From: a virus
Lineage: Duplodnaviria; Heunggongvirae; Uroviricota; Caudoviricetes
Strand: one strand, 5' to 3'
Virus record (IMG/VR): IMGVR_UViG_2713896776_000007
Coordinates: 1 to 22,230 of that record
DNA: 22,230 nt
The position numbers and the translations under genes are program-made. Every line of letters starts with the position of its first letter. Within the stretch, counting starts at the first letter, position 1. Of this stretch, positions 1 to 18,466 are shown one piece after another. Under the pieces are notes generated by a model, which was given only the letters and a program-made list of their open reading frames with translations, did no database searches and had not been told where the DNA came from.

Positions 1-270
1 ATGGAAAATCTACTTTTTGTGATGTGTTGGATTAAAGATCATCATGTGATGTCATTAGCTTTTGGCGTCTTATCTGCAATTTTATGGATTAAATCTGCTA
101 CAGCAAAAGTTGAGTTAGGCAAAAAAATTGTCATGGTTACGTATGAAGATCCCGAACTTAACGTGAATCTCCATGATTTCTTCGCCACTGCGCGGCTTCA
201 ATCTAAGTACAATTCATTTGCAGCATTGTCTGCAGCAGCAACCGCGCTATTCCAGATTATTGGTTTGTAA
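1..270 (+). CDS. hypothetical small hydrophobic protein (89 aa); ORF begins at the window edge and may be 5-prime partial
   Basis: Open frame from nt 1 to TAA at 268-270. Two hydrophobic stretches (VMSLAFGVLSAILWI and FAALSAAATALFQIIGL). AT-rich, convergent with the cargo operon. No RBS can be assessed at the window start. Confidence 0.3.
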   Translation: MENLLFVMCWIKDHHVMSLAFGVLSAILWIKSATAKVELGKKIVMVTYEDPELNVNLHDFFATARLQSKYNSFAALSAAATALFQIIGL

Positions 271-407
271 TGCTTACCAGCCCCAAATTAATCAATACCC
301 AGTGGTATTAGCAATGTCCATTTCAAGTACATACGTTCTTAAGACATTTGGGCACTGTCATGTCTGTCGGGGAGGAGGTTAAAATCCTCTCGTGCAAAAT
401 TTCTTAG

Positions 408-770
408 CTAGAGAATACAAAGAACATCATCTGGTGTTAACACAGAGTCTTCTACGTACTCAGGGTGGTTACGTAATACATCTCTCTGATGTCTCAAGAT
501 CTGCGCTGGAATTTCTTGCTCATCCACAATTTTGGCAGTATCCAGCAAAATACTGCCACACCTTATTTCCAGCGAAACAAAGCGATTCCACTCTGGACCA
601 TTAGAACACAAAAGGTCAAACAAAACCTCACCTGTAGCCTGTGAATTGCCCAGTATAACAGAAAGCCTCTTCTCGATTTCGTGAACTGAAGTCAAGGGGT
701 TCTCGTAGCCAGTCGCCATAACGACGGCAATGAGAGCCCCTGAGACGTTAACACCTGTTATTTCAAACAA
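408..770 (-). CDS. rnlB: RnlB/LsoB-like antitoxin candidate (120 aa), second gene of the cargo operon
   Basis: TTG start at 770 preceded by AAGGA about 8 nt upstream. The 8-nt overlap TTGTTTGA contains the TGA stop of the upstream gene, so the two are translationally coupled. Size and position match the RnlA-RnlB arrangement (toxin first, about 120-aa antitoxin second). Assignment rests on architecture only. Confidence 0.45.
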   Translation of the reverse strand: MFEITGVNVSGALIAVVMATGYENPLTSVHEIEKRLSVILGNSQATGEVLFDLLCSNGPEWNRFVSLEIRCGSILLDTAKIVDEQEIPAQILRHQRDVLRNHPEYVEDSVLTPDDVLCIL

Positions 771-1833
771 TATACAAATCCTTAATAATTCCCCATGCCT
801 GTCTGGCCTTAGTCATCAGTCGTGCCATGTCAGAAACCATACGGCTTGTGTCGACAACTATCTCCATATGAAACAGGCCATGACGTTCTCTGTTAAAGAA
901 AGTATAGGCATCATTAATGGTCTTAACCTTAGCTGACGATAAATTGCATCCAAATTGTTGTTTCAGAATAAATTCACTCCCAATTTTATCAAAATAAGGC
1001 CCGAAACCATCCTGCGTGATTGGCATGCCATATCGGTACATTGTTGATTTAAGTACTCCCTCAACTGAACGTAATTCAGGATACAACAACATACAGTAAT
1101 CGGGTAAATCGGGGGCGGCGAGTTTAACACACAGCCCAGAAACGAGCAATTTTTCAACATTCTTATGCAATAGTGGGTACGCATCCCCCATTTCACACTC
1201 TAGATGTGAGCGAGCAACTTCTTTCTGAACTATATACGCTTTGCCATCATCCTGACGAATGAGAACTTTTTCCAGTCCTTGTAAATCGAGTAGCTCTGAC
1301 AAGTTGAATATAAACACTCTATAACATGACAATGGACGCCCTTGTATTTGTAGTGTTCCATTTCTGTGATGCAGACTAACTGTCAACTCATCCTGAAATT
1401 CTGGCGAATGAATTTTCCACACCGTTGTATGAGTGTTCCGTAAGTATTCGTAAAATTGTATATGTGGCTGCTCTGCTGAGAGCTGAAGTACAGATAAAAC
1501 GTTCGCTTCAACGAACCCTTGTAACACCATATTTACCTGTTCAAATTCTGCAGGATTGATGGTTTCATAGAGATCATCAGCCAACTCTTTTCCAAGATTA
1601 TGATTAGCTCCTGTTTGATACTGGACTGTAGACGTCCCTCCGTTATTATAGAAAATGTTAACAGTTGCCAAAGCTTCTCCTGGTTTAGCAAACACAACCC
1701 GAAGTCCTGCTCTTGCACCAGGCATTGGTCCAATTGAATGGACGGAATAGTTTTTATTTTCAATAAATGCCCTAGACGTAGCCTCAATAGTTGTCCGATC
1801 TAAATTTAAATTAGTGTAGTTCCTGACTGTCAT
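763..1833 (-). CDS. rnlA: RnlA/LsoA-like HEPN endoribonuclease toxin candidate (356 aa from ATG at 1833; the ORF stays open up to 1944)
   Basis: C-terminal Rx4-6H HEPN-type motif NRERHGLFH. Counting from the ATG at 1833, R255 and E258 (LRSVEG) and R317/H322 fall at or within one residue of the catalytic positions I recall for E. coli RnlA (R255, E258, R318, H323; 357 aa). Followed by an overlapping gene of about 120 aa. AT-rich. Not verified by alignment. Confidence 0.55.
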   Translation of the reverse strand: MTVRNYTNLNLDRTTIEATSRAFIENKNYSVHSIGPMPGARAGLRVVFAKPGEALATVNIFYNNGGTSTVQYQTGANHNLGKELADDLYETINPAEFEQVNMVLQGFVEANVLSVLQLSAEQPHIQFYEYLRNTHTTVWKIHSPEFQDELTVSLHHRNGTLQIQGRPLSCYRVFIFNLSELLDLQGLEKVLIRQDDGKAYIVQKEVARSHLECEMGDAYPLLHKNVEKLLVSGLCVKLAAPDLPDYCMLLYPELRSVEGVLKSTMYRYGMPITQDGFGPYFDKIGSEFILKQQFGCNLSSAKVKTINDAYTFFNRERHGLFHMEIVVDTSRMVSDMARLMTKARQAWGIIKDLYIV

Positions 1834-1842
1834 TTGCTTAAC

Positions 1843-1871
1843 CCTATAAAAAACTTTAGCAAACTCTACAA
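1843..1871 (-). promoter_or_regulatory. candidate sigma70 promoter for the cargo operon
   Basis: On the minus strand, TTGTAG then 17 nt then TATAGG, ending about 9 nt before the ATG at 1833 (short leader). Hexamers are imperfect. Confidence 0.25.
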
Positions 1872-1892
1872 TATAGCCCCTCTTTAGTCTAA

Positions 1893-2255
1893 TCAGGCGC
1901 TGTATCCTGAAATCGGGTACCGATAATATCCCTCCTGCAGCCATGTGTTGGTGTTAACAAGATACTGTGTATCAATTGAATCCGTCAGATTGCAAAAGTT
2001 GATGCCTCTTTCGCGCAGTTCCTCCACCAGCACGACAAGATGCCGCATACTGCGCCTCAGTCGATCCAGTTTCCAGACCACCAGCGTATCACCTGCCGAT
2101 AATGTCCTGAGCAGTTTTTTCAGTCCCGGCCTTTCGGACTTTGTACCGCTTATCTTGTCTTCAAAAATCAGCTCGCATCCTGCACAGTTCAGCGCATTAC
2201 GTTGTAGATCTGTGTTCTGGTCATTTGTTGACACACGTACATAGCCAATAAGCAT
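1893..2255 (-). pseudogene. pin: Pin/Gin/Hin-family serine DNA invertase, 3-prime truncated (N-terminal catalytic domain only)
   Basis: MLIGYVRVSTNDQNTDLQRNALNCAGCELIFEDKISGTKSERPGLKKLLRTLSAGDTLVVWKLDRLRRSMRHLVVLVEELRERGINFCNLTDSIDT is near-identical in pattern to the Gin/Pin N-terminus, including the catalytic Ser in YVRVSTNDQ. Homology ends after SIDT (about nt 1968); the remaining 24 codons are unrelated and the C-terminal DNA-binding domain is absent. Confidence 0.8.
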
Positions 2256-2281
2256 GGTAGATCTCCCTGACAAAAGCAGGA

Positions 2282-2815
2282 ATGATGCCATTTGCGCGTT
2301 ATTTCTGCATTTTCATAAACGTTGGTTTGGGAGAAGGCTCTGCATTACCGGTTGGGGTGCCTGTTCCGTGGCCTTCAGCCACTCCGCCAACAGGCTGGCT
2401 GAAATGCAATGGTGCGGCTTTTTCTGCTGAAGAATACCCGGAACTGGCAAAGGCTTACCCGACCAATAAATTGCCTGATTTACGCGGTGAATTTATTCGT
2501 GGCTGGGATGACGGACGTGGAGTGGATAACGGAAGGGGATTATTAACGCTTCAGGACGGTGCGATTGTCAGTCATAACCACTATTGGGGAATCTGGACTT
2601 CACGAACTAACGACCAGACTCTGGAAAGTTTTACAGGCACCACGATTTTAAAACAAATCACGCCCCTGTCTCCGGCCATTGACTTCGATAATTACCCAAT
2701 TCCCAACCCGGCTATTACAGAGGGTGGTGTTGTTGCGGCAACGACTAAACCTGCTGGTGCGAATGAAACACGCCCACGAAATGTCGCTTTTAACTATATT
2801 GTGAGGGCTGCATAA
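2282..2815 (+). CDS. alternative (currently silent) tail-fibre C-terminal variable segment, Sv-prime/StfE-like
   Basis: Contains the tail-fibre receptor-binding signature GVPVPWPSATPPTGWLKCNGAAFSAEEYPELAKAYP...LPDLRGEFIRGWDDGRGVD. Lies inside the invertible segment in opposite orientation to the expressed fibre. Real coding likely starts at the crossover site (GLGE codons near 2323). Confidence 0.7.
   Translation: MMPFARYFCIFINVGLGEGSALPVGVPVPWPSATPPTGWLKCNGAAFSAEEYPELAKAYPTNKLPDLRGEFIRGWDDGRGVDNGRGLLTLQDGAIVSHNHYWGIWTSRTNDQTLESFTGTTILKQITPLSPAIDFDNYPIPNPAITEGGVVAATTKPAGANETRPRNVAFNYIVRAA
2310..2335. other. invertase crossover site (hix/gix-like), left end of invertible segment
   Basis: TTTTCATAAACGTTGGTTTGGGAGAA. 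Its right 14 bp (TTGGTTTGGGAGAA) are identical to the inverted partner at 4213..4238. Confidence 0.55.
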
Positions 2816-3417
2816 TGAATAACGCAGAATTAAACAGTGAATTAATTGCCACTATGGCAGGAGAAATTACTGTTTATAACTTTGATGTCATGAGTCGGGA
2901 ATATATTTCAGCTTCAACTGAATATCTTGCTATTGGTGTCGGCATTCCGGCATATTCCTGTTTAGATGCCCCAGGCGCATACAAAGCTGGTTATGCAATC
3001 TGCCGTTCTGCAGATTTTAACTCATGGGAATATGTGCCAGACCATCGCGGTGAAACGGTCTATAGCACCGAAACAGGAGAATCAAAAGAAATCACCGCTC
3101 CGGGTGATTACCCTGAAAATACAACCACTATCGCCCCATTAACGCCATATGATAAATGGGATGGTGAGAAATGGGTGACGGATACCGAGGCACAGCATAG
3201 CGCCGCAGTAGATGCAGCAGAAGCACAGCGCCAGTCGCTGATTGATACTGCAATGGCGTCCATCAGTCTGATTCAACTGAAATTGCGGGCCGGACGTAAA
3301 CTGACGCCGGCAGAAACAACCCGGCTTAACGCTGTGCTGGATTACATTGAGGCGGTGACGGCAACAGATACCAGCACCGCGCCGGATGTCATCTGGCCTG
3401 AACTGCCGGAGGCGTAG
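2815..3417 (+). CDS. tail fibre assembly protein (U-prime/TfaE-like), 200 aa
   Basis: Start overlaps the stop of the preceding fibre segment (ATGA coupling). C-terminal ...DTSTAPDVIWPELPEA is typical of Tfa chaperones. Confidence 0.8.
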   Translation: MNNAELNSELIATMAGEITVYNFDVMSREYISASTEYLAIGVGIPAYSCLDAPGAYKAGYAICRSADFNSWEYVPDHRGETVYSTETGESKEITAPGDYPENTTTIAPLTPYDKWDGEKWVTDTEAQHSAAVDAAEAQRQSLIDTAMASISLIQLKLRAGRKLTPAETTRLNAVLDYIEAVTATDTSTAPDVIWPELPEA

Positions 3418-3841
3418 GCCATTCAATATCTGGTGCACTGGAGGTATCAACCAGCTCCAGTGCATCCAGATAATCCAGCCACAAATTATATTGCGCCAGT
3501 TCCTCACCTTTCAGACGACCAATAGCGGCTTTACCGGGCCATTGCTTACTGTTCATGTATTCGTTGGCCTGGTTAATTAGTAGCTGTCTTTCTGATTCAG
3601 TAATTTCAATAAGCTCTTCATGCGTGGGTGGAGGAATATCTGCCCACGCAGGCAGCCCATCATCTCCGGCAATACGGATTTTTCCTTGTGGCGGTTCAGC
3701 CATAAACTCACTGATAATATTCTGATTTACTTCCTTAGCGTCTGATAAATCCCATCCCTCTGATTTATATTTATCAATCATATCCACAGGAAAAAAAGCA
3801 TTATGCCTTGCGCTATAAACATATTCGTTCATATAAATCAC
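3389..3841 (-). CDS. tail fibre assembly protein (U/TfaP-like), about 147-150 aa
   Basis: MNEYVYSARHNAFFP N-terminus and DTSSAPDIEWPTPP C-terminus are typical of Tfa. The 3-prime end overlaps the convergent Tfa gene. True start may be the internal ATG at 3832. Confidence 0.8.
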   Translation of the reverse strand: MIYMNEYVYSARHNAFFPVDMIDKYKSEGWDLSDAKEVNQNIISEFMAEPPQGKIRIAGDDGLPAWADIPPPTHEELIEITESERQLLINQANEYMNSKQWPGKAAIGRLKGEELAQYNLWLDYLDALELVDTSSAPDIEWPTPPAVQAR

Positions 3842-3852
3842 CCTGAATAAAA

Positions 3853-4515
3853 TTACTCACCAACAGCCCACCAACTGTAATTCATCGATACCGTGTCGCT
3901 GGTTGATGACGTTCTGTAAGCAGAATTAAAACCGGTTAACGTTGGGTCTTCTGCCGTCATCACGAACCCTCGCCCAGCGCCTAAAGGCGCACCGCCATCA
4001 CCAGAATGAGTAAGCATGGCGCAGTCCGCTTTTTTGGGGAAAGGGATGCTGAATGTAATTCTCATTGTTTGCGTCGATAATGTCGGCGTAACCGCACCTC
4101 GACCATATTGCAGGATTTTACCGTTGGGTAATTTCATCCATCCATCACCACTGGCAAAAGAAGCCATGTCCGGTATCTGATTTTCCCCTGTCCCCACATC
4201 CCGTTTTGCCGCTTCTCCCAAACCAAGGTTTTCGAGAGCCGTTTTCACCGTGCCGTCCGATTTGATATCGCCAAACGGATTCTTGCGGCTTAACAGCAGC
4301 GCGCGAAGTGCGGTAAGCAACTGGTCATGCCTCCCCTTCTCCAGGCTGGTACCGGATGCCTCCACCACGCTGCAAAGCTCCTCCTGCAACATGTCAAAGT
4401 AGTCATCATCCAGATCGGTGGCAGGTGTGCCGGTCTGGGGGTTACCACGGGTAAAACCGTTCTTACCCGCGCCGAACTTATCCTTCTGCGCGGTTTTCGT
4501 GTCTATACGATGCAT
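3853..4515 (-). CDS. tail fibre protein (expressed orientation), StfP-like, 220 aa
   Basis: N-terminal [14 protein letters not shown] resembles the conserved fibre N-terminal attachment motif. The crossover site lies within the gene at the GLGE codons. Immediately downstream of the gp48-like gene. Confidence 0.75.
4213..4238. other. invertase crossover site (hix/gix-like), right end of invertible segment, inside the expressed fibre gene
   Basis: Plus strand TTCTCCCAAACCAAGGTTTTCGAGAG closely resembles Hin hixL as I recall it (TTCTTGAAAACCAAGGTTTTTGATAA). Inverted relative to 2310..2335. Confidence 0.55.
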
Positions 4516-4518
4516 GGA

Positions 4519-5103
4519 TTACTCCGGATATTTAAAAATTACGTAGGTATGCGACGGGCAGAGTTTGTTAAGCACACACTCGACTACGGTGTCGCCCCAG
4601 ATACGCAGTGCGGAATCACAGGGATCGCCACATGTCATCCAGGTGGTGTTGGTGGCGGCTGGCATGTTGACCTGCCAGTAATACCGCCATTCCGGCGCAT
4701 TCACCGCGTCAGTACAGGCAGATGAGCAGGTGAACGTGCTTTTGTCGTATCGCGTGATGGTGGCGTCTGGTCTGCCCAGGGCAGCAAGCTGTGCAAGGTA
4801 AAAATCCTCATTGATGCCGCCCGCCAGATTAACCTTCGCATCCAGCCGTTGCTGACGCTGGCGAAGGGTCTGCGTCCCTGCCGGAATACATTCATCCGGC
4901 AGGCCGCACAGACGCTCCCAGCGATTTATCAGTTCGGTGGTGGTGCGCGGATCCAGCTCCCGCATCAGGGCATCCGCACGCTGATGAACACGGGTTAATG
5001 AAGGTGCCGCACCGGCAATCGCCGGATCGCTGGCTGACCACGCCGGACCGGGCGGCAACAGTGCCGATAACAGGCGGATGTAATCATCGTTTGTCACGTC
5101 CAT
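4519..5103 (-). CDS. baseplate/tail protein, YmfQ / Mu gp48-like (DUF2313-type), 194 aa
   Basis: Same length as e14 YmfQ (194 aa) and same position between the baseplate J-like gene and the tail fibre. Confidence 0.65.
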
Positions 5104-6152
5104 GAAATCGTCCCCAGTACCGCCAGTTCGTTTTTCGCAATGGAAATATTGTCTGCCGGTGCAAGCAACTGATGGCTGTATTCCCCGTTCGCACCGGAAA
5201 TCGCCTCACTGATACGCGATACCTTCAGTTCTCCCTGCGGATAACCATCACGCAGCAGGAACGAACGCAACTCCGCGGTAATGGCAGCCCGTATTTCCGG
5301 TGTGTCCGGCGTCACGCGGATATGAAAATCCACCGTATGCGCCACCGGCCTGAACACATACAAATCAGAGCCTGCCACCGGGGCCAGAGGCCCGATATGT
5401 TGTCTTGCCGCCGTTTCCGTTGATTCTTCCGGAATGGGATTAATCAGGTCACTGCTGGCAATCATCACACCGACAGTTCCCGTTCCCATCCAGTGACGGT
5501 ATGTCCATGCGCGGGTAATGCCGGGCACTTCTTTAGCCCAGACGACATAGTCCCCGTCAGCCCCGCCCTGAAGCGTCCAGTAATACCGCTCAATGACGCG
5601 GGCGCGCCACGTTTCCAGATCTTCAGTATCGAATCCGCCAGTCAGGGTATCTGCAACACCGGAAGACGGCAGACCATTCACCGGCGTGACCAGGATTAAT
5701 GCCGTACCGTCGTCAGCGTTACCGACCGCGCCTGCACTTGAGCAAGTGATCGGCACGCGCAGGACACCACCGGAGCTGGTTGCATCAGCAGTTGCCGTGT
5801 ACTGAACCAGGTCAGCGCGCTGAATCACGCTCCCGGCGGTCACCTTCAGGCCATCGCTGACACCTTCCCAGCGCATATACCCGCTGGCAGCCGTGGCCCC
5901 CTTGCGCGGACACCGTTTCATCGCAGCATGTCGCGCCAGCCAGGACTCATCGCACAGGTCAGGCAGCATGTTCATTGCCAGATAATCGATGTAACCGTAA
6001 ACCGTATGCAGCGCCGCCGCATACACCTTTGCCCGCACGTCTTCATCCATGCGCCGGAGCGTGTCGCTGACGTCCAGCCTGGCGAATAAATCGTTACGGA
6101 GCATACTGATATTTTCTGCCAGCGTCGGGCGCTGAAATTCACTGTCCGCCAT
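5094..6152 (-). CDS. baseplate J-like protein (Mu gp47-like), 352 aa
   Basis: Size and position in the baseplate operon; overlaps neighbours by 10-14 nt (translational coupling). Confidence 0.65.
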
Positions 6153-6567
6153 GCGTTATCGCACTCCACAGATCATCAAAAGAAATCATTACCGGTCCGT
6201 CACGACGCCAGAGGGTGATACTGTTACCCAGCTCATTAATCCCGGTGCGGCGGATATCCAGATCAATACGGGACACCACGCCGTCATCAATCATCCATTG
6301 CAGGCATTCGCGGATATACCCCCTTACCGTCTGCACCAGCTGATTGGTCAGTTTGCTGCGCTGAAGCAGCCACAGTCGGGAGCCGTAACGGTCATTCTGT
6401 ACCGCAGGCCAGGTATCCCCCCACCATCCCATCGGGACGTCGGCGTTGTCATCAGGCTCCGCCCGCCGCCAGGTAAACATGGAAATCACCACGGCGCGGG
6501 TCAGCGGATCCAGCGGTGCGCTGGCGCAGGTGCGTTTACCGTTCACCGTCAGCCACAGTTCCATCAT
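6139..6567 (-). CDS. baseplate protein, Mu gp46 / GP46-family (lysozyme-like gp25 type), 142 aa
   Basis: Motifs GWWGD and GSRLWLL are as I recall for the GP46 family. 4-nt overlap with the upstream V-like gene. Confidence 0.6.
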   Translation of the reverse strand: MMELWLTVNGKRTCASAPLDPLTRAVVISMFTWRRAEPDDNADVPMGWWGDTWPAVQNDRYGSRLWLLQRSKLTNQLVQTVRGYIRECLQWMIDDGVVSRIDLDIRRTGINELGNSITLWRRDGPVMISFDDLWSAITHGGQ

Positions 6568-7112
6568 GCCTCCATCGCTTTATCAGGTTTGTCGGTGTTA
6601 CTGCCCTGACCGTTCTCTCTGTGACGATGCCCGTTATAGGCAAGCCGCATCGCTGACATGGTAGTGCCGCCGGAGTCGCACAGGTCTTTCACCTGTCCGG
6701 TCACTTCAAGGTCCATTTCAAAACGTGCTCTGGGCGCATTGCGAAACGTGATCGTTTTACCTGCACCGTCCACCACGATCCCCTCCCGGGTCAGCGTCAC
6801 AGACTGCCCCTGATCGTCATAGACAGCCACCTCACCCGTCTGCAGCCCTTTCAGGCGGTAGCGCCGGTCCGACACCGTAACAACCACCGCATGAGAACGG
6901 TCGCCATCCGGAAACAACACCACCGCTTCCGCACCGCTGTTTGCCCTTGCGGTAAAACCGTAGGGTTCAAGATGTTCAACCCCGGCTTTGGGTTCACCGG
7001 CAATCAGGGACACATCCACGGTCTGACATTTCGTGGCGGCGCTGATACTTTTCACCACTGCCCGCCCAATCAGGCCGAGAAGTTGTCGCTGCATGGCTTC
7101 AATCGTCCTCAT
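6564..7112 (-). CDS. baseplate assembly protein V (Mu gp45-like), 182 aa
   Basis: LEPYGFTA...GAEAVVLFPDGDRSHAVVV...RYRLKGLQTGEVAVYDD matches the gpV family signature. Confidence 0.7.
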   Translation of the reverse strand: MRTIEAMQRQLLGLIGRAVVKSISAATKCQTVDVSLIAGEPKAGVEHLEPYGFTARANSGAEAVVLFPDGDRSHAVVVTVSDRRYRLKGLQTGEVAVYDDQGQSVTLTREGIVVDGAGKTITFRNAPRARFEMDLEVTGQVKDLCDSGGTTMSAMRLAYNGHRHRENGQGSNTDKPDKAMEA

Positions 7113-8191
7113 CAGAACGGGTCCTCCTGTACTCTGGCTTTTTTCTTTTTCTGCGCGCCGGGGGCATCGGGTTCAGGCAGATAAGCATCAGGCGGGCCGA
7201 CACGGATTTCCGTCAGGGTGCCGTTCTGGTCCTGAGTAAACGTGACTTCCGAAACAAGCAGTTCGGTATTGTCAAAACCACAGACCGGATCAAAGACAAT
7301 CACCCGCTGGTTGGGCTGCCACAGCGTACCGTTACCCTGTCGCCAGCCCTGCACCACATAGGTGGTTTCATCCGTCCGCGCCGCCCGTTGCCGGGCTTCA
7401 AAGTCAGCACGCGCAATACAGCCAGCCCCCGTGGCCTGCCCTGTCTGCCTGATATACATCGGACGGTAACGGGCAATAAATGCGTCCTCTGTGCGGGCCC
7501 GCAGCGCGGTGGTGGTGGCCTCACCGAAATCATCGTCGTTTCCGGCACGCTGCCCCGCCACCTGGTAAACTGAAAACCGCTCCCGGATACTCTTCTCCGT
7601 ATCGCAGGAAAGGATGTTTTCCCCAAGTACCAGCGCGGTATGTGCCCGCGTTGAGCCAATACCGCCAATCACCAGCCTGCCGTGCGGATCGTCGTAAGCC
7701 AGTGCCTGCTGCTGACCGAGTATTTTGTTGATTACCTCAATCACCGTTTCACCGTGATCAGGCTGAACATCAGGAATAACACCCGACGGCGCACCGCTGT
7801 TCACCACCTCAATGCCGAAAGGCGCAGCAAGCGCCTGCGCAATCTGCACCAGCGAGCGTCCGTTAAACTGTGTCGGTTCGGCTGCACAGTCAATCAGGTC
7901 AGCCGTCAGACTACGTCCGGCAATACCGGTGCTGACCGAACGGGCATCGTAACGAACGGGCGTCGCCTCCACCCAGCCGGTGATCACCAGCTCATCACCA
8001 ATCAGCACCTCCACTTTTGAACCGTTTTTAATGCGCGGCTGAAGCGTGGTGATACCCTCATCACCCGGCCACTGGCGGGTGATCTCCACACTGAAATCCC
8101 GCGCCAGCCGTTCAATACCGGCACCGATGCGCACCGATGTCCAGCCATTCCACTCCCGGCCATTTACCCGTAGCGTGACATTGTCGTTCAT
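7112..8191 (-). CDS. tail/baseplate hub protein (Mu P / gp44-like), 359 aa
   Basis: Position between the DNA-circulation-like gene and the V-like gene; overlapping start and stop with both neighbours. Confidence 0.55.
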   Translation of the reverse strand: MNDNVTLRVNGREWNGWTSVRIGAGIERLARDFSVEITRQWPGDEGITTLQPRIKNGSKVEVLIGDELVITGWVEATPVRYDARSVSTGIAGRSLTADLIDCAAEPTQFNGRSLVQIAQALAAPFGIEVVNSGAPSGVIPDVQPDHGETVIEVINKILGQQQALAYDDPHGRLVIGGIGSTRAHTALVLGENILSCDTEKSIRERFSVYQVAGQRAGNDDDFGEATTTALRARTEDAFIARYRPMYIRQTGQATGAGCIARADFEARQRAARTDETTYVVQGWRQGNGTLWQPNQRVIVFDPVCGFDNTELLVSEVTFTQDQNGTLTEIRVGPPDAYLPEPDAPGAQKKKKARVQEDPF

Positions 8192-9564
8192 TGCACTGGC
8201 ACCTTCAGAGGGATCACCGGCACAAAGCCGGGATGCGTAATGGCATTACGCCGGATAATGTCCGCGTCACGCGCCGCGTTATCAAACCAGGTCGCCGCCA
8301 GCACCAGCGCGGGTAAAACCTCATCCGGTGTGCGCTGAATGATCCGAGCAGACTGTTCAAGGCGCGTGTTGATATCCGCATTCAGATCTGCTTTCACCCG
8401 GCGCAGCGCCAGAAACAGCGCATCACTGGTTGTACGGGACAACTCCTTATCAATTGCCGTATTCAGTGTGTCGCGAATGTCGGTCAGTTCTTCCCACGTT
8501 GGCAGGTCAACCGTGTTTTTCACCGCCGGTGCATTGTTCAGTGCCGGATGCGTGACGGAAGGCCAGCCGGAGCTCTGCGCGGGTGTTGTTGACTGCCCCA
8601 CTGCGGCATTCTGCATCACCGCAGAAGTTGTTGGCGCAGGCAATCGGGTGACGGCATACGCCGCTTCGCTGATTGCGGTCGTACGAAGGATGCTGGCAAC
8701 CACGTTACGCTGCTGCGTCGCCGTGGCGGTGGTTTTACTGTCCGTTTTCCAGACGCCGCGCGGTTGCAGATCGCTGCCGAGGCTGACACCGGAAAGCGTT
8801 TTGATCATGGTGACCAGGTCGCTGGCGTTACCATAAAGGCGTTTCCCGGTACGCCACATTTTCTGCACCTGCTCAACGAAATTTTTTCCTGACGATGGCG
8901 GCGGCAGAAGTACCGAGATATCCCCCTGCAACAGCCTGGCAGCATCCGATACGGCAGAATCCACCACTTTCATCGCATCAGAAACATACCCCAGCATTGT
9001 GCTGGCATTACCGACGACGTCGTTCTGCACAAAATCCGCCACGCCATCGATACTGAAACCACTGAAACTGTCACTGATGCAGTCATCCAGTGCAGAACAG
9101 GATGACATCAGCGTCTGCGCCGTCGCCGCACCTGATGTGGGGTAAGAGAGTTCTCCCGCTTCGACAAACTTCAGGTCAAAGCGGACAATACGCCCTTCAC
9201 TTTTCGATGTGCTGACCCGAACTTCCCCGTCAACACAGACTTTCAGCTCACCGTATGTCGGATGGACAAGCGTGCCGGGACCGGGTTTATTCAGCGCATC
9301 AATCAGGCGATCGCGCTGGTCAAAGCAGTCATCTCCCACCACATAAGCCGTGATGGACGGGCGGAAAGTAACTTTTCCCAGATCTTCGGTATAGGGCTTG
9401 TCGCGGTTCGGGTATTCGTGTGTTTCCACACGGCGACCGGTTCCCGCACTTTCTTCTTCAACCTTAAACGATACGCCGCGAAATGACGCGTCCTGAAGTC
9501 TGTCACGCCAGCCTGAAGACGACGAAAGTAATGAAGGTCGGGTGGGAAATGAGGATAAATCCAT
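8188..9564 (-). CDS. tail protein of the Mu N / DNA circulation family (gp43-like), 458 aa
   Basis: N-terminal WRDRLQDASFRGVSFKVEEE...GRRVETHEYPNRDKPYTEDLG is characteristic of the DNA-circulation N-terminal domain. Directly downstream of the tape measure. Confidence 0.7.
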   Translation of the reverse strand: MDLSSFPTRPSLLSSSSGWRDRLQDASFRGVSFKVEEESAGTGRRVETHEYPNRDKPYTEDLGKVTFRPSITAYVVGDDCFDQRDRLIDALNKPGPGTLVHPTYGELKVCVDGEVRVSTSKSEGRIVRFDLKFVEAGELSYPTSGAATAQTLMSSCSALDDCISDSFSGFSIDGVADFVQNDVVGNASTMLGYVSDAMKVVDSAVSDAARLLQGDISVLLPPPSSGKNFVEQVQKMWRTGKRLYGNASDLVTMIKTLSGVSLGSDLQPRGVWKTDSKTTATATQQRNVVASILRTTAISEAAYAVTRLPAPTTSAVMQNAAVGQSTTPAQSSGWPSVTHPALNNAPAVKNTVDLPTWEELTDIRDTLNTAIDKELSRTTSDALFLALRRVKADLNADINTRLEQSARIIQRTPDEVLPALVLAATWFDNAARDADIIRRNAITHPGFVPVIPLKVPVQ

Positions 9565-9588
9565 AGACTGACCTCAAAAAGGACTGCG

Positions 9589-11496
9589 TTATCGTGGAAA
9601 ACGAAAAGGGGAATACCCCACATCGTGCGTGATTTTCATCAGGGGATCGGCTTTGTCCGGTACATCAATTATCTTCATACCTGGCGGAGCATTCTCGAAC
9701 GTGACTTTCAGCTCGCTGTGCTGTGTCATGGAAGAAGATGGATTCAACAGCGGAACATTGGGTTTGTACTGACTCAGGCTGGCCTGATATTGCTCGTACT
9801 CTTTACGATCAAAAAAAGGCGTCCAGTCTGAAGCCAGAAACAGCCCTTTATTATCCAGCCAGTTAACCGTATCTTCAGGAACAACACTTTCCAGAGTATC
9901 TTTAACCGGCTCATACATCAGGGTTCCCAGAAAACCATATACCCCGGCCTTCCCGATAAAGCCGCGGCCTTTCCCCATCAATCCCGTTTCTGCCGATACC
10001 TTCCCCAGCGTACGCATCTCTCTGGTCACTGCGGTAATGGATTTGGTAACGTCAGCAACCCATTTGGTTGCCATAAACAGGGCAATCGCTTTCAGAACAG
10101 TTTCCCATCCCCCCATCGCCTGCGCCGTTTCATCCATCACGTGCCAGACTTTTTTTATGACAGGACCTACGGTTTCCCAGTTATCAATAATGAGGTAAGC
10201 GCCACCAACCAGAAGAGCAATCAGCCCCTTAGCAGGCGTCATATTCATCACACCGCCGAGAACTTTCATAATTCTGGACAAAGAGCCTGCAGCGGCTCCC
10301 ACCGTCAGTAAGGCCAGACCGATTTTAGCAATGGTCTTAACGAGCTCCGGGTTTTCACGGACAAACGTTCTCACTTCCTCAAGGAGCGGTTTTACCGCTT
10401 CAAGACCATCATTAACCTCAGGAAGAAACGTTTCCCCCAGCGTGGAAGAAATGGCATCAAGTTGATTTTGCAGAAGTAAAAGCTGGTTTTCCGTCGTCGC
10501 TGCCCTCGAAGCATATTCCTTCTGCATCGAACTGCCATACTGCTGGGAATCCGCAACCCGCCTGAAGTTGGTACGCAACAAATCAAGGTTAGTCAGCAGA
10601 GGTGCTATCGCGCCCAGAGACTCTTTCCCGAACAGGGCATTCAGCACAGCTGCCCGTTTTTCTTTAGGCACTTTAGCCATCGCATCCAGTACAGATAGCA
10701 TGGTGCCCCGGGCATCTTTCTGCATATCAGCAGCTAATTTCTTCGGATTGATCCGCAGAAAACGCAATGCCTGTTTCTGCGATTTTGTCGCAGAATTTCC
10801 CGCGGTCAGGGAAAGCATGAAGTTCTTGATCCCTGTGGCGGCAATTTCTGACTCCACGCCCATCCCGGCAATGGTTGCCCCCATTGCCGCGATTTCGCCG
10901 GAAGCCACACCTGCAACACCACCTAAAGGACCAATACGCGTAACAATATCGGAGATTTTCTTCGCGTTCGCCGGGCCGGTATTACCAAGGTAGTTGATTT
11001 TGTCAGCCAGCCCGGCCACTTCATCCTGCGTCATATTAAACGCAGTACGCCACTGGGCCATCATCTGCCCGGACTCTTCAGCCGTGGTATCAAAGGCCAC
11101 GCCCATCTTCACCGCATCAGTGGCAAACTGCATCAGTTCATCACGTGCAATCCCGGCCTGACCACCCGCCGCCACGATTTCAGCGATACCTTCCGCCGAC
11201 ATAGGCAGTTCGGTTGACAGGTCACGCACCTGCTCCGTCATGGCCTTAAACGCATCCGGCGTATCCAGACCGTCCACCACTTTGCGGACATCAGCCATCT
11301 TCGATTCAAGGGTGATGGCTGATTTTACAGGGAGTACCAGTGCCCCCATTATTGCAGTACCCGCCCCGGCAGCGCCCAGAGCAAGGCTGGAGACTTCTTT
11401 CTGAAATCCCTTAAGCTGACGCTGCATACCTTTAAGCGGGCCGGATAGCCTGTCAACGGCGGTGATGATGGCTTTCAGCTGAAAATTATCAGCCAT
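9589..11496 (-). CDS. tail tape measure protein (canonical position, Mu gp42-like), 635 aa
   Basis: Helical, Ala/Gly-rich with the tape-measure core (IAEIVAAGGQAGIARDELMQFATDAVKMGVAFD...INYLGNTGP) and a hydrophobic GGAYLIIDNW segment. Lies between the chaperone-like gene and the N-like gene. Confidence 0.8.
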   Translation of the reverse strand: MADNFQLKAIITAVDRLSGPLKGMQRQLKGFQKEVSSLALGAAGAGTAIMGALVLPVKSAITLESKMADVRKVVDGLDTPDAFKAMTEQVRDLSTELPMSAEGIAEIVAAGGQAGIARDELMQFATDAVKMGVAFDTTAEESGQMMAQWRTAFNMTQDEVAGLADKINYLGNTGPANAKKISDIVTRIGPLGGVAGVASGEIAAMGATIAGMGVESEIAATGIKNFMLSLTAGNSATKSQKQALRFLRINPKKLAADMQKDARGTMLSVLDAMAKVPKEKRAAVLNALFGKESLGAIAPLLTNLDLLRTNFRRVADSQQYGSSMQKEYASRAATTENQLLLLQNQLDAISSTLGETFLPEVNDGLEAVKPLLEEVRTFVRENPELVKTIAKIGLALLTVGAAAGSLSRIMKVLGGVMNMTPAKGLIALLVGGAYLIIDNWETVGPVIKKVWHVMDETAQAMGGWETVLKAIALFMATKWVADVTKSITAVTREMRTLGKVSAETGLMGKGRGFIGKAGVYGFLGTLMYEPVKDTLESVVPEDTVNWLDNKGLFLASDWTPFFDRKEYEQYQASLSQYKPNVPLLNPSSSMTQHSELKVTFENAPPGMKIIDVPDKADPLMKITHDVGYSPFRFPR

Positions 11497-11580
11497 GCTT
11501 CATCTCCTCATTTATACGGACGGCCTCTGCCTCCAGATCAGCAAAGTGGGAAATAGCCGTCCGGCGAAGTTCAAGGGGGT

Positions 11581-11904
11581 TTAATTTCCAGAACCACGCG
11601 ACATTGTAGAATCGCTTCCGGAGGTCTCTTCCGTCTCCAAGCCGGTAAAAAAACGCATTACAATCATGCCTGCCTTGAAAATATCCAGCTTCGTCATCTG
11701 CGCTGCAGACGAGCGCGGGATCCCGGCCAGAAGCGGGATATATTTCAGCGCCACCTGACTGTCCATTTTCATACCACCATCAGGCGAAACAGAGAAAGGG
11801 AACCCCAGCGCCTCAATCTCGTCATACGTAGGCTCACGTATTTCCAGCACATGCAGTGTTTCTTTGTGGGCGATGATCGGTTTTTTAAGTACAAGCTCAA
11901 TCAC
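11581..11904 (-). CDS. tail assembly chaperone candidate (Mu gp41-like), 107 aa
   Basis: Small acidic protein between tube and tape measure. No frameshift extension of 60 aa or more is visible in the ORF track. Confidence 0.45.
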   Translation of the reverse strand: MIELVLKKPIIAHKETLHVLEIREPTYDEIEALGFPFSVSPDGGMKMDSQVALKYIPLLAGIPRSSAAQMTKLDIFKAGMIVMRFFTGLETEETSGSDSTMSRGSGN

Positions 11905-12257
11905 TGGTAATCCCCTTCTTCACCGTGGAACTCAAGATCGACCGTGCCTTCTTCGGCATTATGGTTCGCTTCGCCGTGCAGCCAGGCAGACGACAGTACA
12001 TAGACCTGACCGTTCGCCAGCTCGGCAGTGATGGTCATCTCATCAGACGAGGTGATTTTGCTCACCGGAAAATTCTTCGGCACCTTGAAGGTCCCTTTGA
12101 CATAAGGCGCACGGTGAGTTTCCTTGCGGTCCACTGAACCGTCCAGGCCGATGATGTCATCATTGACCGTCCTGTTCATGGGCACCTCAATGCCGCCGGT
12201 CAGCGATAGCTGCTGACCGTCAATTTTGAAATAACAGGTTCCCCCGATACGGGCCAT
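11901..12257 (-). CDS. tail tube protein (Mu M-like), 118 aa
   Basis: Directly follows the sheath gene with overlapping start and stop; size typical of a Mu-type tube. Confidence 0.65.
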   Translation of the reverse strand: MARIGGTCYFKIDGQQLSLTGGIEVPMNRTVNDDIIGLDGSVDRKETHRAPYVKGTFKVPKNFPVSKITSSDEMTITAELANGQVYVLSSAWLHGEANHNAEEGTVDLEFHGEEGDYQ

Positions 12258-13753
12258 TATGCGGACTCCTCTGAATACTGAAGACGGAACTGGTTAACCA
12301 CGGCAAAGACACGCAACTGGTTAACATAGTCAGGCGGGAACAGCGTGTTCAGGCGGTTCGGATCGCTGGCATCACGCTCCACAACTAGGTACTGCTTAAA
12401 CAGTGCGTAGTTTTCCACGATCCCCGCACGCTCAAGCTGACGGTAGGTTGCCAGCAGTTCCCCTTTGATCACCGCCGGGGTGACAATCGCCTGACCGGGA
12501 CCAAAGCGGGTACCGTCACTGGCAAGCTTGTGACGCCCGTACTTACTGGTAATGACGGATTTCAGTTTGCGCAGTACATACGCGCTGGTATGCAGGGTCT
12601 CACTGTCTAGGTAGCTGTTATCCGCAACCCCGTAAGCGTTTTTCCTGTACGTGGTGACATCACGCTGAATGCGCAGTACCCCGCTTTCGACATACGCCGT
12701 TGCCACGCCATGAGACAGCAGGGTCTGTTGTTCGGTCATCGTGAACCGTTTCCCCTTCGGCGCAGGCAGCATACCCACCAGCTCACCGGTCTGCGTGGGA
12801 CGTGCCGGATCGTTGCGAATAAACACCGCTGCGCGGGCGGTACGGCTTGCCGCCAGTTCGTCGGCAGGCGTCTGGGTCTCTTTTTCGTACCCCGCCAGGG
12901 TAATGTGCTGCTGGTTAAACTGGTCACCTGCGGTCACCAGTTCTGACAGCGTGCCGATCTTTGCCGTATACACATGACCATACAGCTGACGCGCATAGCT
13001 CCAGCGACCGCTGGTATCGTTCATCTCGGTCACCAGCGTGTTAACGGAGGCCGTGTCGTTGAACGGCAGGCCGATATAATCAAACGGCTCATCCGCCATT
13101 GCAGCCACCGCGCCGGTGAGAACCGGAGCACCCGTTCCGGCGGTACCCGTCGCCACGGCAATCTGTACGCCCGCTGGCAGCACTTCGCCCCCACCAAAGC
13201 CGTAGTAATTGAGGCTGACAGGAATTTCATTCCCGCAAAGCCCCTTATGACGCGCGGTCAGTGTGACCACGCCTGCCGAAGATGAAGCCGTAAACGGCAG
13301 GGCCGGAACGGCATTGATGGCATCTTTGATACTGCTGGCAATCGTCGTGACGTTATCGCCGTTGGTCACCGGAGCCTGCACGCGGGTACGTCCCACATAG
13401 ACATTCACCGTGCCGGTTTCGGTTGCCGCCCCGGTCACCGTCAGCGTAACCGTTGCCGCCGCGCCTGTGGATTCAGGAACGGCAATCACATACAGCTCAC
13501 CAAACGGGTCGGTCTGGCGATAAGCCTCGACCATACGCGCCAGCTGACTTCCCGCACCACAAATCTGGCGTGCATAGTCTGCCGACGGCATCAGTACCAG
13601 ACTGTTGGCAACAATCTCTGCACCGTTATTGGCATGACCAATCAGCAGCGATGCTCCGCTGTCCTGTGCAGTATTCGCCGCCGAGTTATCCATTTCCGCA
13701 TAAAACAACGGAACCAGCGTATTCGACGGAATGGTGTTAAAGCTTATCGTCAT
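12257..13753 (-). CDS. contractile tail sheath protein (Mu L-like), 498 aa
   Basis: Size and position, followed by tube, chaperone and tape measure. Confidence 0.75.
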   Translation of the reverse strand: MTISFNTIPSNTLVPLFYAEMDNSAANTAQDSGASLLIGHANNGAEIVANSLVLMPSADYARQICGAGSQLARMVEAYRQTDPFGELYVIAVPESTGAAATVTLTVTGAATETGTVNVYVGRTRVQAPVTNGDNVTTIASSIKDAINAVPALPFTASSSAGVVTLTARHKGLCGNEIPVSLNYYGFGGGEVLPAGVQIAVATGTAGTGAPVLTGAVAAMADEPFDYIGLPFNDTASVNTLVTEMNDTSGRWSYARQLYGHVYTAKIGTLSELVTAGDQFNQQHITLAGYEKETQTPADELAASRTARAAVFIRNDPARPTQTGELVGMLPAPKGKRFTMTEQQTLLSHGVATAYVESGVLRIQRDVTTYRKNAYGVADNSYLDSETLHTSAYVLRKLKSVITSKYGRHKLASDGTRFGPGQAIVTPAVIKGELLATYRQLERAGIVENYALFKQYLVVERDASDPNRLNTLFPPDYVNQLRVFAVVNQFRLQYSEESA

Positions 13754-13915
13754 CGGTATTCACCTTTTTATTCACGCGCCGGATATCACCCGCTGCTTCA
13801 CGGCGCAGCCAGTAGTTGTTCTCGTCAACATTTCGCCCTTCGGCGGGCAAAAGGTCGCCGCGGGCAGGGTCAGGAACTGACCGCCCTTTAACAGGTTTCA
13901 CAAACATGAAGATTC

Positions 13916-14476
13916 TCAGGAAGGAAGGGTTATTTCGGTGTGATGTTCGATATCGCCGTCAGGCCCGTTACCGGGATCGAGATAATCAACATCAATCGCC
14001 AGCGTTCGCAGTTCATCCAGACTGTTCAGGTCATCCTGCTGGCGGGTATCGTCTTCAGTCAGCTCGCTGATGACCGAAAAATCGAACTGATAAATCAGCT
14101 CATGACGATTCAGATCCAGCAGCGTGCCGCCGTCATAGGTAATCGGGTTACCGCACGCCTCCGGGTTCCAGCCCAGCAGAGCCTTAAAGAGCATCTGCCG
14201 GACATCGTCCACCACATCATACGAGGCAAACTGACCGCGCTCATCACGCCCGTTACTCAGTATGACAACCACGGAGAAACCCTCTTTCAGCTCCTGCCAG
14301 TAGTCGGTCTGGCTTTTGTTTTCTCCCGGAGAATCATCACCCGGTACAACATATGCCGCCGGGAGTTTCAGCTTTCCGACCTCCGGCAGATTTTTGAACT
14401 GGGCCGCGCCTGCAACCCGGTTTTCAAAATACGGACAGCGGGCACGCAGTGCAGCAATAACAGGCGTCAGTTTCAT
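13916..14476 (-). CDS. tail completion / neck protein candidate (Mu gp37-like), 186 aa
   Basis: Position immediately upstream of the sheath gene; acidic C-terminus. Assignment is positional. Confidence 0.4.
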   Translation of the reverse strand: MKLTPVIAALRARCPYFENRVAGAAQFKNLPEVGKLKLPAAYVVPGDDSPGENKSQTDYWQELKEGFSVVVILSNGRDERGQFASYDVVDDVRQMLFKALLGWNPEACGNPITYDGGTLLDLNRHELIYQFDFSVISELTEDDTRQQDDLNSLDELRTLAIDVDYLDPGNGPDGDIEHHTEITLPS

Positions 14477-14704
14477 CTGTGTCGTCGCTCCGGCTTCAGT
14501 GATTTACGCAATTCCCGCGCCAGAAAATAGCGTGTCCAGCTGCGGTTCTTTTCAAGAGTTTCCACCATGAAGTTATTACGTGGAGCCAGTCGCCAGCCGC
14601 TGCCACCGGATGCACCTGATCCACCGCGCGATAAATAAGCCGCAATCCGTGAGATAAATGGACACGGTGCGGCTTTTCAGATACTGCAAAGGAATTACAA
14701 ATTA

Positions 14705-17182: not shown

Positions 17183-17214
17183 GGTTCACTCCGGTAATGA
17201 GTGGTTCGGTGGCG

Positions 17215-17808
17215 TCATTCGGTCAGGGACAGGCCGCTGATTCCGGTAATCCCGGCAATTTCCTCGCTGACAGCCATCAGTTCACTTTCAAGCCCGGTAC
17301 GTTCGCTGACCAGCGCCGCAACGGTCTTACGGCGTTCTGCCAGTGACGGAAGTTTGTCATTGCCCCACACCACGCTTTTATCCTTCTTAAGCGCTTCGGT
17401 CAGGCGGGTGGCGACCACATCCGGGAAGAAAAAGCAGAGCTTGCGCATAACCGCCATCCCGGTATCAGCCGGGGAGATGTTTCCACCCAACCCCACCAGA
17501 CGGAACAGGCCGGAAATATCGCCGCTCTCATTCTCCAGATTGCCCCAGCGTTCGGCGTTCCCTTCACTGCCGGAACTGTTGCAGAGGACACGCTTGAATG
17601 ACTGATATTCTTCCTGCCCGAATCGCTCAATATATTCAGGAATGAAAGAACAGTAATCATTAAGCGATAAAGGCATATCCTGTAATGTGGTTATTTCGCC
17701 GTTAATTTCACTAATGCGGCGAGAGAGTTTTTCTTTCTGCTCATTCAGGGAGGCAAGATTATTTTTAACGGCGTTCAGTGCTTCGATAAGGGAAATAACT
17801 GGTTTCAT
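17215..17808 (-). CDS. hypothetical phage protein with N-terminal coiled coil, 197 aa (scaffold or chaperone-like?)
   Basis: ORF in operon orientation, start adjacent to the stop of the upstream gene. No recognisable motif. Confidence 0.45.
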   Translation of the reverse strand: MKPVISLIEALNAVKNNLASLNEQKEKLSRRISEINGEITTLQDMPLSLNDYCSFIPEYIERFGQEEYQSFKRVLCNSSGSEGNAERWGNLENESGDISGLFRLVGLGGNISPADTGMAVMRKLCFFFPDVVATRLTEALKKDKSVVWGNDKLPSLAERRKTVAALVSERTGLESELMAVSEEIAGITGISGLSLTE

Positions 17809-17809
17809 T

Positions 17810-18424
17810 TTAATAACTCCAGATAAAAGGCGTGGTGAGTGTGAGTGCTTCGGAATAGGAGACGTTACAGGCTTCGCTTACATCCTTTATTAAAAGGTGC
17901 TGCGCTGCTCTCTGGCTGTCAGCTATGCCGTCGAACTCTGAGAAATAAACGTGTGATTCATTGTGACCAAAACAGACCGGGTAAGCGCTTTCCATAAATT
18001 CCACCTGCTCCAGCCCTTTAACGGCTGGCGGCTGTGAGCCGAGAAAACCGATATGGCGTAGATACCAAGCTCCGGTGCCTGCCGGGTTGCTGGCCTCGCC
18101 GGGCTTATAGAATGACGCAGATACTTTCCTGTAACGCCCTGAGCGCACCAGCCCCAGCAGGGTATCATCCGGTTTTACCAGTGCGAAAAGCCTGCCGTTC
18201 TTGCTTATCAGTCCGGTGGTTTCGCCATAGGCCGGGCTGTTACTGGCCGGATGCCCCAGACACAGCGGCGCACCGTAACCCGCGCTGCGATAGCCGTTAT
18301 AGGCCGCTGCCATGTTGTCGATATCCTCGTCGGAAAAGCTGATTTCCTGTCCCGCCATCGCGGTATGCGTTCCCGCCCGGAATATCTCAATCGTTTTCCA
18401 GTTGCCCAAATTAAGATTTGTCAT
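17810..18424 (-). CDS. hypothetical phage late protein, 204 aa; weak resemblance to the Mu I prohead-protease N-terminal domain
   Basis: First gene after the Mor-like activator. Motifs GHP...PAYG and GRYRKVSASF resemble my recollection of the Mu-like I protein family; unverified. Confidence 0.3.
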   Translation of the reverse strand: MTNLNLGNWKTIEIFRAGTHTAMAGQEISFSDEDIDNMAAAYNGYRSAGYGAPLCLGHPASNSPAYGETTGLISKNGRLFALVKPDDTLLGLVRSGRYRKVSASFYKPGEASNPAGTGAWYLRHIGFLGSQPPAVKGLEQVEFMESAYPVCFGHNESHVYFSEFDGIADSQRAAQHLLIKDVSEACNVSYSEALTLTTPFIWSY

Positions 18425-18466
18425 TTACCTGTTCTCGGTTGTGATGTGTAAACAGTGCTTTGCTGC

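Follow-up and report, generated by a model that had tools for sequence, protein, structure and literature searches.

A truncated pin invertase gene, its rnlA-rnlB cargo and an invertible tail-fibre segment at the end of an Escherichia coli prophage

The closest described counterparts of the locus reported here are the inversion systems of PinE (e14), Gin (Mu), Cin (P1) and Hin (Salmonella). In Gin, the catalytic core comprises residues 1-100, the E helix, which serves the dimer and the synaptic tetramer, residues 101-137, and the DNA-binding domain residues 138-198 (PMC3575834). Members of this class also depend on a Fis-bound enhancer located in cis. The Hin enhancer is 65 bp long, carries a Fis site at each end and lies within the hin gene, ~100 bp from hixL (PMC3798978; PMC9368917). 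Trans action is documented for several of these enzymes: the e14 P segment is a substrate of PinQ and PinR (Qin and Rac), the Mu G and Salmonella H segments are turned by Pin, and the H segment also by Fin of Fels-2 (PMC12529663).

We analysed a window of 22,230 nucleotides (the whole stretch of viral DNA, positions 1 to 22,230 of IMG/VR record IMGVR_UViG_2713896776_000007), of which positions 1-14515 were 100% identical to NCBI contig LDYM01000107.1. The locus has the same layout as the four systems above: a constant fibre part, two alternative C-termini with chaperones, 26-bp inverted sites, and an invertase gene beside one site. Its sites carry the same repeat as the e14 P segment. In contrast to intact PinE, however, the invertase gene of the window lacks residues 97-184, has 24 unrelated codons instead, carries the replacement G67R, and cannot act on its own switch.

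The invertase stump and its breakpoint

A minus-strand ORF of 132 aa at 1893-2291 was verified in the window. Its N-terminal ~96 residues had been described in the initial annotation as near-canonical for Gin and Pin, with the catalytic serine included, and the searches bore this out. The ORF matched the Pfam Resolvase N-terminal domain (PF00239) with E=3.7e-31 over ORF residues 15-109 (profile positions 2-106 of 145). Residues 1-97 of the solved Gin structure (4m6f_A) aligned to the ORF with E=1.7e-46, and alignment was absent past residue 97. Amino acid identity with the intact PinE of strain 81EVA was 92.7% over residues 1-96. The motif YVRVSTNDQ holds the catalytic serine, which is Ser9 when numbered from the MLIGY start. 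In the DRL-R motif the arginines are kept, and the Gly between them is replaced by Arg (G67R). The ORF and its breakpoint are composed as follows.

1968 to 2255, minus strand: pin stump, the first 96 codons of a serine invertase of PinE/Gin type, catalytic core only, with Ser9 (Pfam, Gin and PinE alignments)
1893 to 1967, minus strand: read-through tail of 24 codons without relation to invertases (QYLVNTNTWLQEGYYRYPISGYSA), plus the stop at 1893-1895; diverges from intact pinE
2256 to 2291, minus strand: 5′ extension of the mechanically called ORF, 12 codons (MASFLLLSGRST), probably noncoding (starts of intact pinE and RefSeq genes)
1963 to 1968, no strand: pin-cargo breakpoint, the same in all copies inspected; matches to intact pin from both genomes and phages begin at 1963-1969 without exception

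ATG 2255 (MLIGYVRVST...) is probably the true start, as both intact pinE genes and the RefSeq version of the stump begin there, and the first 12 ORF codons are probably not translated. RefSeq labels the identical stump "recombinase family protein, incomplete, missing C-terminus". From ATG 2255 the ORF of 120 aa is still open; gene calls on more than 100 contigs include it as a protein, and expression of a fragment is possible.

The C-terminal DNA-binding domain, recorded as missing in the initial annotation, is indeed absent. When the intact 184-aa PinE was used as tblastn query, only residues 1-96 matched; none of residues 97-184 was recovered from the window or from 6 kb past its left end, even at E<=10. 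A Pfam search of the stump ORF revealed no HTH domain. Homology stops at residue 96/97, and the stump thereby lacks the E helix (Gin residues 101-137) as well as the C-terminal helix-turn-helix DNA-binding domain (Gin residues 138-198), the latter being absent from the window and the 6 kb beyond. Since the DNA homology ends after codon 96, all parts for subunit contacts and DNA binding are gone. A stump product would be catalytically dead: judged from its sequence, it cannot bind DNA or form a synaptic tetramer. On these alignments, the ORF is an ordinary pseudogene consisting of the first 96 codons of a PinE-type invertase.

DNA homology to intact pinE loci (e.g., strain 81EVA) stops at 1963-1968, straight after SIDT, and alignment to these loci and to Gin set the deletion boundary at codon 96/97. 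From there, as had been proposed, unrelated codons (24 of them) run to the stop at 1893-1895. The coincidence of the break with the edge of an AT-richer cargo was likewise confirmed: GC content was 0.409 in 1-1962, 0.466 in the stump and 0.558 in the tail genes, and the cargo is rnlA-rnlB. At the DNA level, the read-through tail corresponds to rnlA upstream sequence; homology with the K-12 rnlA region extends no further than ~1880. In the alignment with an intact pinE locus, the two sequences may have a few bases of microhomology (<=5 nt) in common at the junction.

The window derives from a draft contig (LDYM01000107.1), and a sequencing frameshift or misjoin might conceal the 3′ half of a full-length invertase. 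A check for a hidden full-length frame found none. Residues 97-184 were untraceable in any frame of the window and the 6 kb beyond (E<=10), the DNA past the break is the rnlA upstream region, and the junction recurred base for base in 72 complete E. coli genomes as well as in numerous independent NCBI, ENA and Logan assemblies. An artefact of this kind has next to no probability and is, on these comparisons, refuted.

The cargo and the history of the junction

The cargo beyond the breakpoint consists of three genes.

763 to 1833, minus strand: rnlA (RNase LS toxin), intact, 356 aa; Pfam RnlA_toxin_N, RnlA_toxin, RnlA-toxin_DBD and HEPN_RnaseLS, with the RefSeq start in 5CRE51
408 to 770, minus strand: rnlB antitoxin, 120 aa; Pfam RnlB_antitoxin, E=3.5e-24
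1 to 270, plus strand: 89-aa ORF, a constant companion of the module; no match in Pfam or PADLOC

The mechanically called ORF of 393 aa at 763-1944 over-extends rnlA. Like RnlA-RnlB of CP4-57 (K-12) and LsoA-LsoB, the window pair has all three RnlA domains, the HEPN region and RnlB. The overlap of the two genes (8 nt between 763-1833 and 408-770) is common to the window and the K-12 rnl operon, and the location at ssrA is common to the window and CP4-57. By gene content, with all RnlA domains and an overlapping rnlB, the pair qualifies as an RnlAB type II toxin-antitoxin pair. However, window rnlA has only 73.6% nucleotide identity to K-12 rnlA, and the window pair, unlike K-12 RnlAB, lies in a prophage at its fibre end, preceded by an invertase stump, and is accompanied by the extra 89-aa ORF. 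PADLOC matched none of RnlA, RnlB, the 89-aa ORF and the stump, its library (v2) being without an RnlAB model. In the source contig, window nt 1 is 300 bp from the ssrA 3′ end (tmRNA at 14816-15178 and ORF start at 14515 of contig L005), which places the cargo at the very end of the prophage region, beside a classical integration site. rnlA follows the stump directly, in the same orientation. A promoter and terminator scan of the minus strand in the pin-rnlA interval yielded nothing useful, with counts at the level of shuffled sequence.

Defence-gene hotspots have been described in P2 and P4 elements (PMC9122126, PMC9519451). Here too, conserved flanks (pin and fibre genes, and the prophage end) surround varying cargo. 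Seven different cargo sets adjoin pin in e14-like and lambdoid prophages, and the cargo after pin in individual strains and elements was as follows.

81EVA: HNH endonuclease, AAA ATPase and FRG-domain protein
ZH177: hypothetical protein and LPO_1073-family protein
2017.15.02CC: GIY-YIG protein and type II restriction-modification pair
32-4: DUF262 protein
Induced phage: mcrA-type enzyme
K-12 e14: mcrA

Close relatives have the same conserved flanks and differing cargo, which is the pattern of a hotspot. pin is intact in some of them; in others it is cut at the equivalents of window positions 1963, 2019 and 2132, i.e., at three or more truncation points. In contrast to the P2/P4 hotspots, the window-type hotspot sits at the fibre end of e14-like and lambdoid prophages, and its replacement is imprecise and repeatedly clips the flanking invertase gene.

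Of 5,426 complete E. coli genomes, 72 carried the junction, in most cases within a lambdoid prophage and at its ssrA end. Among the 72 genomes with the window rnlA allele at >=99%, 71 matched right to the junction, and none had the allele behind an intact pin. The window, 5CRE51 and Ecol_732 share one and the same junction. The module of most carriers sits in a lambdoid prophage, flanked by ssrA on one side and the tail-fibre genes on the other, and the stump there is further decayed (frameshift, loss of the 5′ end): it is shorter, frameshifted and without a start codon in 67 of the 72, with rnlAB intact. The stump 5′ end and the invertible segment are kept in five complete genomes, 5CRE51 among them. 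An exact-pattern scan of metagenome contigs for the junction gave three matches, all of lambdoid types and none of the window type; the same scan of one-genome-per-species contigs gave none. In the phage collection, no record held the stump-rnlAB module, and the pin part alone matched. Because the junction sequence is identical in all contexts, these data point to a single ancestral junction event. The deletion presumably originated by illegitimate recombination. Microhomology (<=5 nt) as its mechanism is a conjecture, because the other parental sequence of the junction was not recovered.

A five-way SNP table was used to compare the stump with related alleles. Up to ~2085, the window carries the allele of the stump-rnlAB module. 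From ~2115 onward, a stretch that takes in the crossover site and runs on into the tail genes, it carries the intact pinE allele of a ZH177-type prophage, which has a Mu-like contractile tail.

2085 to 2115, no strand: homologous crossover interval that makes the stump a mosaic (SNP table)

Mismatches between the window and 5CRE51 numbered 5 in 1-1962, 0 in 1855-2063 and 19 in 2064-2332. Within the 96 stump codons (1968-2255), 10 differences from 5CRE51 were synonymous and 1 was non-synonymous. Stump-specific replacements in the module-derived 3′ part were G67R (in the conserved DRLGR motif), R88C and S89N. Homology to 5CRE51 ends at 2335, and an exchange between prophage contexts at the crossover site was considered; it was rejected because the SNP pattern puts the crossover inside pin, at ~2085-2115. 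On this pattern, the stump is a hybrid of two pin alleles, formed by homologous recombination inside pin. The 10:1 synonymous excess shows, in this comparison, that the 5′ part evolved within a functional gene, and is not a mark of constraint on the stump. The three stump-specific replacements would fit relaxed constraint in the module-derived 3′ part, small as these numbers are.

The initial annotation had suggested that an insertion or replacement event deleted the invertase 3′ end. The loss and its position at the cargo boundary hold, with the refinement that the event did not take place in the present prophage. The comparisons show that the cut was made elsewhere and that stump and cargo are an older module, brought in by homologous recombination inside pin.

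A functional 120-aa product was weighed against a pseudogene. It could be a regulator or dominant-negative partner of invertases, or the frame could be kept for translational coupling to rnlA or for rnlA expression. The ORF is open and identical on 16 or more contigs (the sister allele is found on 109), dN/dS between stump alleles is low, and the stump lies directly 5′ of rnlA on the same strand with no terminator-like site found between them. However, the low dN/dS is explained by the 5′ part having been imported from a functional gene. The E helix for subunit contact is missing, G67R falls in the catalytic DRLGR motif, and two further replacements lie in the module part; moreover, rnlAB is intact in the 67 of 72 carriers whose stump is frameshifted and has no start codon. 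We regard a functional product as highly improbable and retain the pseudogene reading.

Orientation of the tail-fibre segment

Upstream of the stump, the window contains the crossover sites and the invertible segment listed below.

2310 to 2335, minus strand: crossover site A, pix-type, 26 bp (TTCTCCCAAACCAACGTTTATGAAAA), in inverted repeat and containing the e14 P-segment repeat
4213 to 4238, plus strand: crossover site B, 26 bp (TTCTCCCAAACCAAGGTTTTCGAGAG), in inverted repeat, inside the tail-fibre gene (site listing)
2324 to 4224, no strand: invertible segment of 1.9 kb with two alternative fibre C-termini and an assembly chaperone for each (in-silico flip)
3853 to 4515, minus strand: tail fibre in the current orientation, 220 aa, residues 1-101 constant, gp53-like C-terminus (ORF, Pfam)
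2337 to 2815, plus strand: silent alternative fibre C-terminus with Collar domain (ORF, Pfam)
2815 to 3417, plus strand: chaperone of the silent fibre
3389 to 3841, minus strand: chaperone of the current fibre

Sites A and B are inverted, are both intact, and have the half-site TTCTCCCAAACC and an AA/TT core in common; their arms have 20 identical bases. The repeat within site A, TTGGTTTGGGAGAAGG, is that of the e14 P segment (PMC12529663). In-silico flipping of 2324-4224 converted the 220-aa fibre into an in-frame 260-aa fibre with the Collar domain, the 101 N-terminal residues being common to both. The exact flipped 260-aa protein was found in public data.

Orientation was surveyed on contigs that encode the exact 120-aa stump product of the window; these yielded ssrA loci with the module in both orientations. 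Contigs L016 (Logan SRR25518317) and L018 (ENA ERZ27238074), which come from two independent assemblies, equalled the in-silico flipped window with 0 mismatches over 7,255 nt. L022, which represents a third lineage (35 differences from L016), was also flipped. L005, L006 and L025 (the last with 9 differences) shared the window orientation. At least two to three separate inversion events have thus occurred among very close relatives. Since the truncation and the mosaic crossover are common to flipped and unflipped loci that are otherwise identical, the inversion is younger than both. As these loci compare, the switch must still flip, and its inversion must be younger than the loss of the invertase. 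A locked switch, as implied by a dead invertase in the initial annotation, is contradicted by the inverted locus with the same stump and zero other differences. The truncation in turn stands despite both orientations, since other prophages are known to supply invertases in trans (PMC12529663).

The switch might instead be frozen, the orientations in the databases predating the truncation and having been inherited from ancestors with intact pin. Orientation polymorphism of the e14 type is common where pinE is intact (PMC12529663). The inspected lambdoid stump carriers were all in one orientation: no differences in orientation were found among the five complete lambdoid genomes with the stump 5′ end, whose sites deviate from the canonical half-site. 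Flipped and unflipped loci, however, share the mosaic stump allele with 0 differences over 7,255 nt, whereas junction carriers differ by ~1-7% here and sit in different prophages. Given ~1-7% between junction carriers and 0 between orientations, truncation and mosaic crossover would be older than the inversion. The third lineage also argues against a frozen switch: L022 is flipped at 35 differences from L016, and L025, at 9 differences, keeps the window orientation. We attach very little probability to a frozen switch and prefer a switch that still inverts.

Inversion could also have proceeded with no invertase, by RecA-dependent homologous recombination between the short inverted repeats, since the arms share 20 identical bases and the product would be the same in sequence as the site-specific one. 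However, 20 bp does not exceed the shortest substrate that RecA uses efficiently. In addition, the junctions lie at canonical 26-bp invertase sites with the AA/TT core, and two or three separate inversions, at the least, would be needed among very close relatives. The homologous e14 segment is inverted in trans by other Pin proteins (PMC12529663). Inversion through RecA is thus very unlikely, and site-specific inversion remains the preferred reading.

Several other observations on assemblies were made in the survey. Two contigs break off at the inner edge of site A (window positions 2337 and 2376), and in many carriers the stump lies on contigs of 2-5 kb. Such contig ends would be expected if assemblers meet both orientations, and they may be taken as a hint of this. 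Contig L006 was not counted as evidence of heterogeneity; it ends inside the segment at ~3404, away from a crossover site. The opposite orientations of L017/L019 and L020/L021 were rejected as a clean test, as these loci differ by 3-5%.

Presumed inversion in trans and a predicted enhancer

Because the stump is without the E helix and the DNA-binding domain, an enzyme acting in trans is needed. Inversion is presumably catalysed by a Pin-family enzyme that a different prophage within the cell encodes. A tblastn search with PinE found no other invertase gene in the window, and in the genomes that carry the locus, read as contigs only, no other invertase gene was demonstrated. Of 5,426 complete E. 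coli genomes, 2,336 contain Pin-like sequences, and a single genome may hold as many as five. As in the published cases (PinQ/PinR on e14 P, Fin on H, and Pin for Mu gin), a fibre segment would be turned by an invertase encoded elsewhere. In those cases, however, the cis invertase is also intact and trans action is redundant, whereas the window switch would be wholly dependent on foreign enzymes. If the stump is dead, inversion in trans is the sole route to the observed orientations.

A candidate enhancer was found in the retained 5′ end of pin.

2171 to 2234, minus strand: predicted Fis-dependent recombinational enhancer; two G-N13-C 15-mers at gene nt 22-36 and 71-85

The centres of the two 15-mers are 49 bp apart, and the proximal one lies ~96 bp from the centre of site A; the second is not AT-rich. 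Because this geometry matches that of the Hin enhancer, the retained stump is predicted to supply a Fis enhancer. In a K-12 pinE deletion mutant, the segment is locked despite the presence of PinQ (PMC12529663). The locked mutant would fit an enhancer inside pinE, a point that the authors of that study do not make. Retention of the enhancer in all three truncated variants that have the segment was rejected as evidence of selection, as ~60% retention is expected by chance.

It is possible, but rather doubtful, that the stump is kept for its cis-acting Fis enhancer and that an "orphan" fibre switch of an apparently head-less prophage is run wholly by the invertases of other prophages. If so, cargo turnover would trim pin repeatedly and be selected to stop short of the enhancer. 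Switching would then benefit the host, for example through receptor masking of the kind reported for e14 StfE2, rather than phage host range.

We consider it highly likely that one course of events, from a single cut that made pin a pseudogene, through spread of the module and its acquisition within pin, to a switch flipped in trans, lies behind the truncation, the shared junction, the mosaic, the intact sites and both orientations observed in otherwise identical DNA. The 3′ part of pin (E helix and HTH) would have been lost once, when an rnlA-rnlB cassette replaced the variable prophage-end cargo by illegitimate recombination. The resulting module of stump, rnlA, rnlB and the 89-aa ORF, anchored 300 bp from ssrA, would then have spread among E. 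coli prophages. The window prophage probably gained it through RecA-type homologous recombination within pin, at ~2085-2115. The cis elements survive, namely both 26-bp sites, both fibre frames and the predicted Fis enhancer in the retained pin 5′ end, and the 1.9-kb segment would keep inverting, catalysed in trans by the Pin-family invertase of another prophage.

Each of these elements is a new instance of a known phenomenon, and the pseudogene itself is routine, its RefSeq copies being flagged as incomplete. The locus offers a natural example of prophage-end cargo replacement eroding an adjoining phage gene at several independent points, of a defective end being passed to an unrelated prophage by recombination in a shared gene, and of a phase-variable fibre switch outliving its own recombinase and borrowing that of another prophage. 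In annotation, inverted repeats with a dead invertase beside them should not be read as fixed in orientation. As to prophage biology, cryptic elements that share a cell can rely on each other's enzymes.

Neighbours of the pin stump

A further small ORF was invariably found together with rnlB-rnlA and the pin stump, the residual 5′ part of the serine invertase gene; it was 99-100% conserved and had no match in Pfam or PADLOC:

1-270, 89-aa ORF, between ssrA and rnlB-rnlA plus the stump

The annotated start of rnlA is the ATG at 1833, giving a protein of 356 aa. Mechanical ORF calling instead yielded a 393-aa ORF (763-1944), in which 37 upstream codons are fused to rnlA and which overlaps the read-through tail of the stump. 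The rnlA ATG lies 57 nt downstream of the stump stop codon. No terminator-like site was found between the two; thus, rnlA could be transcribed by read-through from the pin side.

Pin truncation and orientation of the fibre segment

Separate pin truncations were found in two lambdoid relatives. In L008 (7043-7237) a 64-aa stump adjoins a GIY-YIG gene, and in L009 (7013-7134) a frameshifted stump of ~40 aa adjoins a DUF262 gene. Both cuts are independent and lie at positions other than that in the window. These two further truncations indicate that pin erosion through cargo turnover is recurrent.

In two other lambdoid prophages, L001 and L007, the half-site flanking the pin-adjacent segment is a variant (TTCGCCCAAACC), the second site is degenerate, and the fibre gene is annotated as missing its C-terminus. 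The lambdoid segment had a single orientation throughout the complete genomes inspected; a switch of the L001/L007 type may therefore be fixed, even with pinE intact.

Several assemblies had contig breaks immediately at the inner border of crossover site A (2310-2335), the stump-proximal site of the invertible fibre segment. Two stump-bearing contigs ended there, L023 at window position 2376 and L024 at 2337, and the longest stump-bearing contig was only 2-5 kb in 12 of the collection's blocks. Such a pattern could reflect sequenced cultures that contained both orientations, or repeats that other pin-bearing prophages also carry.

The block at 14614-22230

The rightmost 7.6 kb of the window (14614-22230) forms a separate block, within which the following were found:

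825-aa tape-measure-like ORF
two unknown ORFs
Mor activator
DUF3102 protein
HicB-like gene
Mu gp27-like gene

The complete genome of E. coli AW1.7 carries this block at 100% identity, within a Qin-like prophage whose major capsid gene it interrupts. The cut in the AW1.7 capsid gene corresponds to the left end of the block (14614), whereas in the window the same end adjoins the tail-terminator region. Because one block end adjoins two different sequences, the findings suggest either a rearrangement or a Mu-like remnant that is mobile.

Tail module without head genes

The window contains a complete contractile-tail module:

2300-14600, fibre, baseplate, tape measure, tube, sheath and terminator

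Head, terminase and lysis genes, which follow the tail module in the intact relative ZH177, were not present in the window; on this basis, the prophage appears to be defective and to lack a head. Host-range switching may thus have no virion left to serve.
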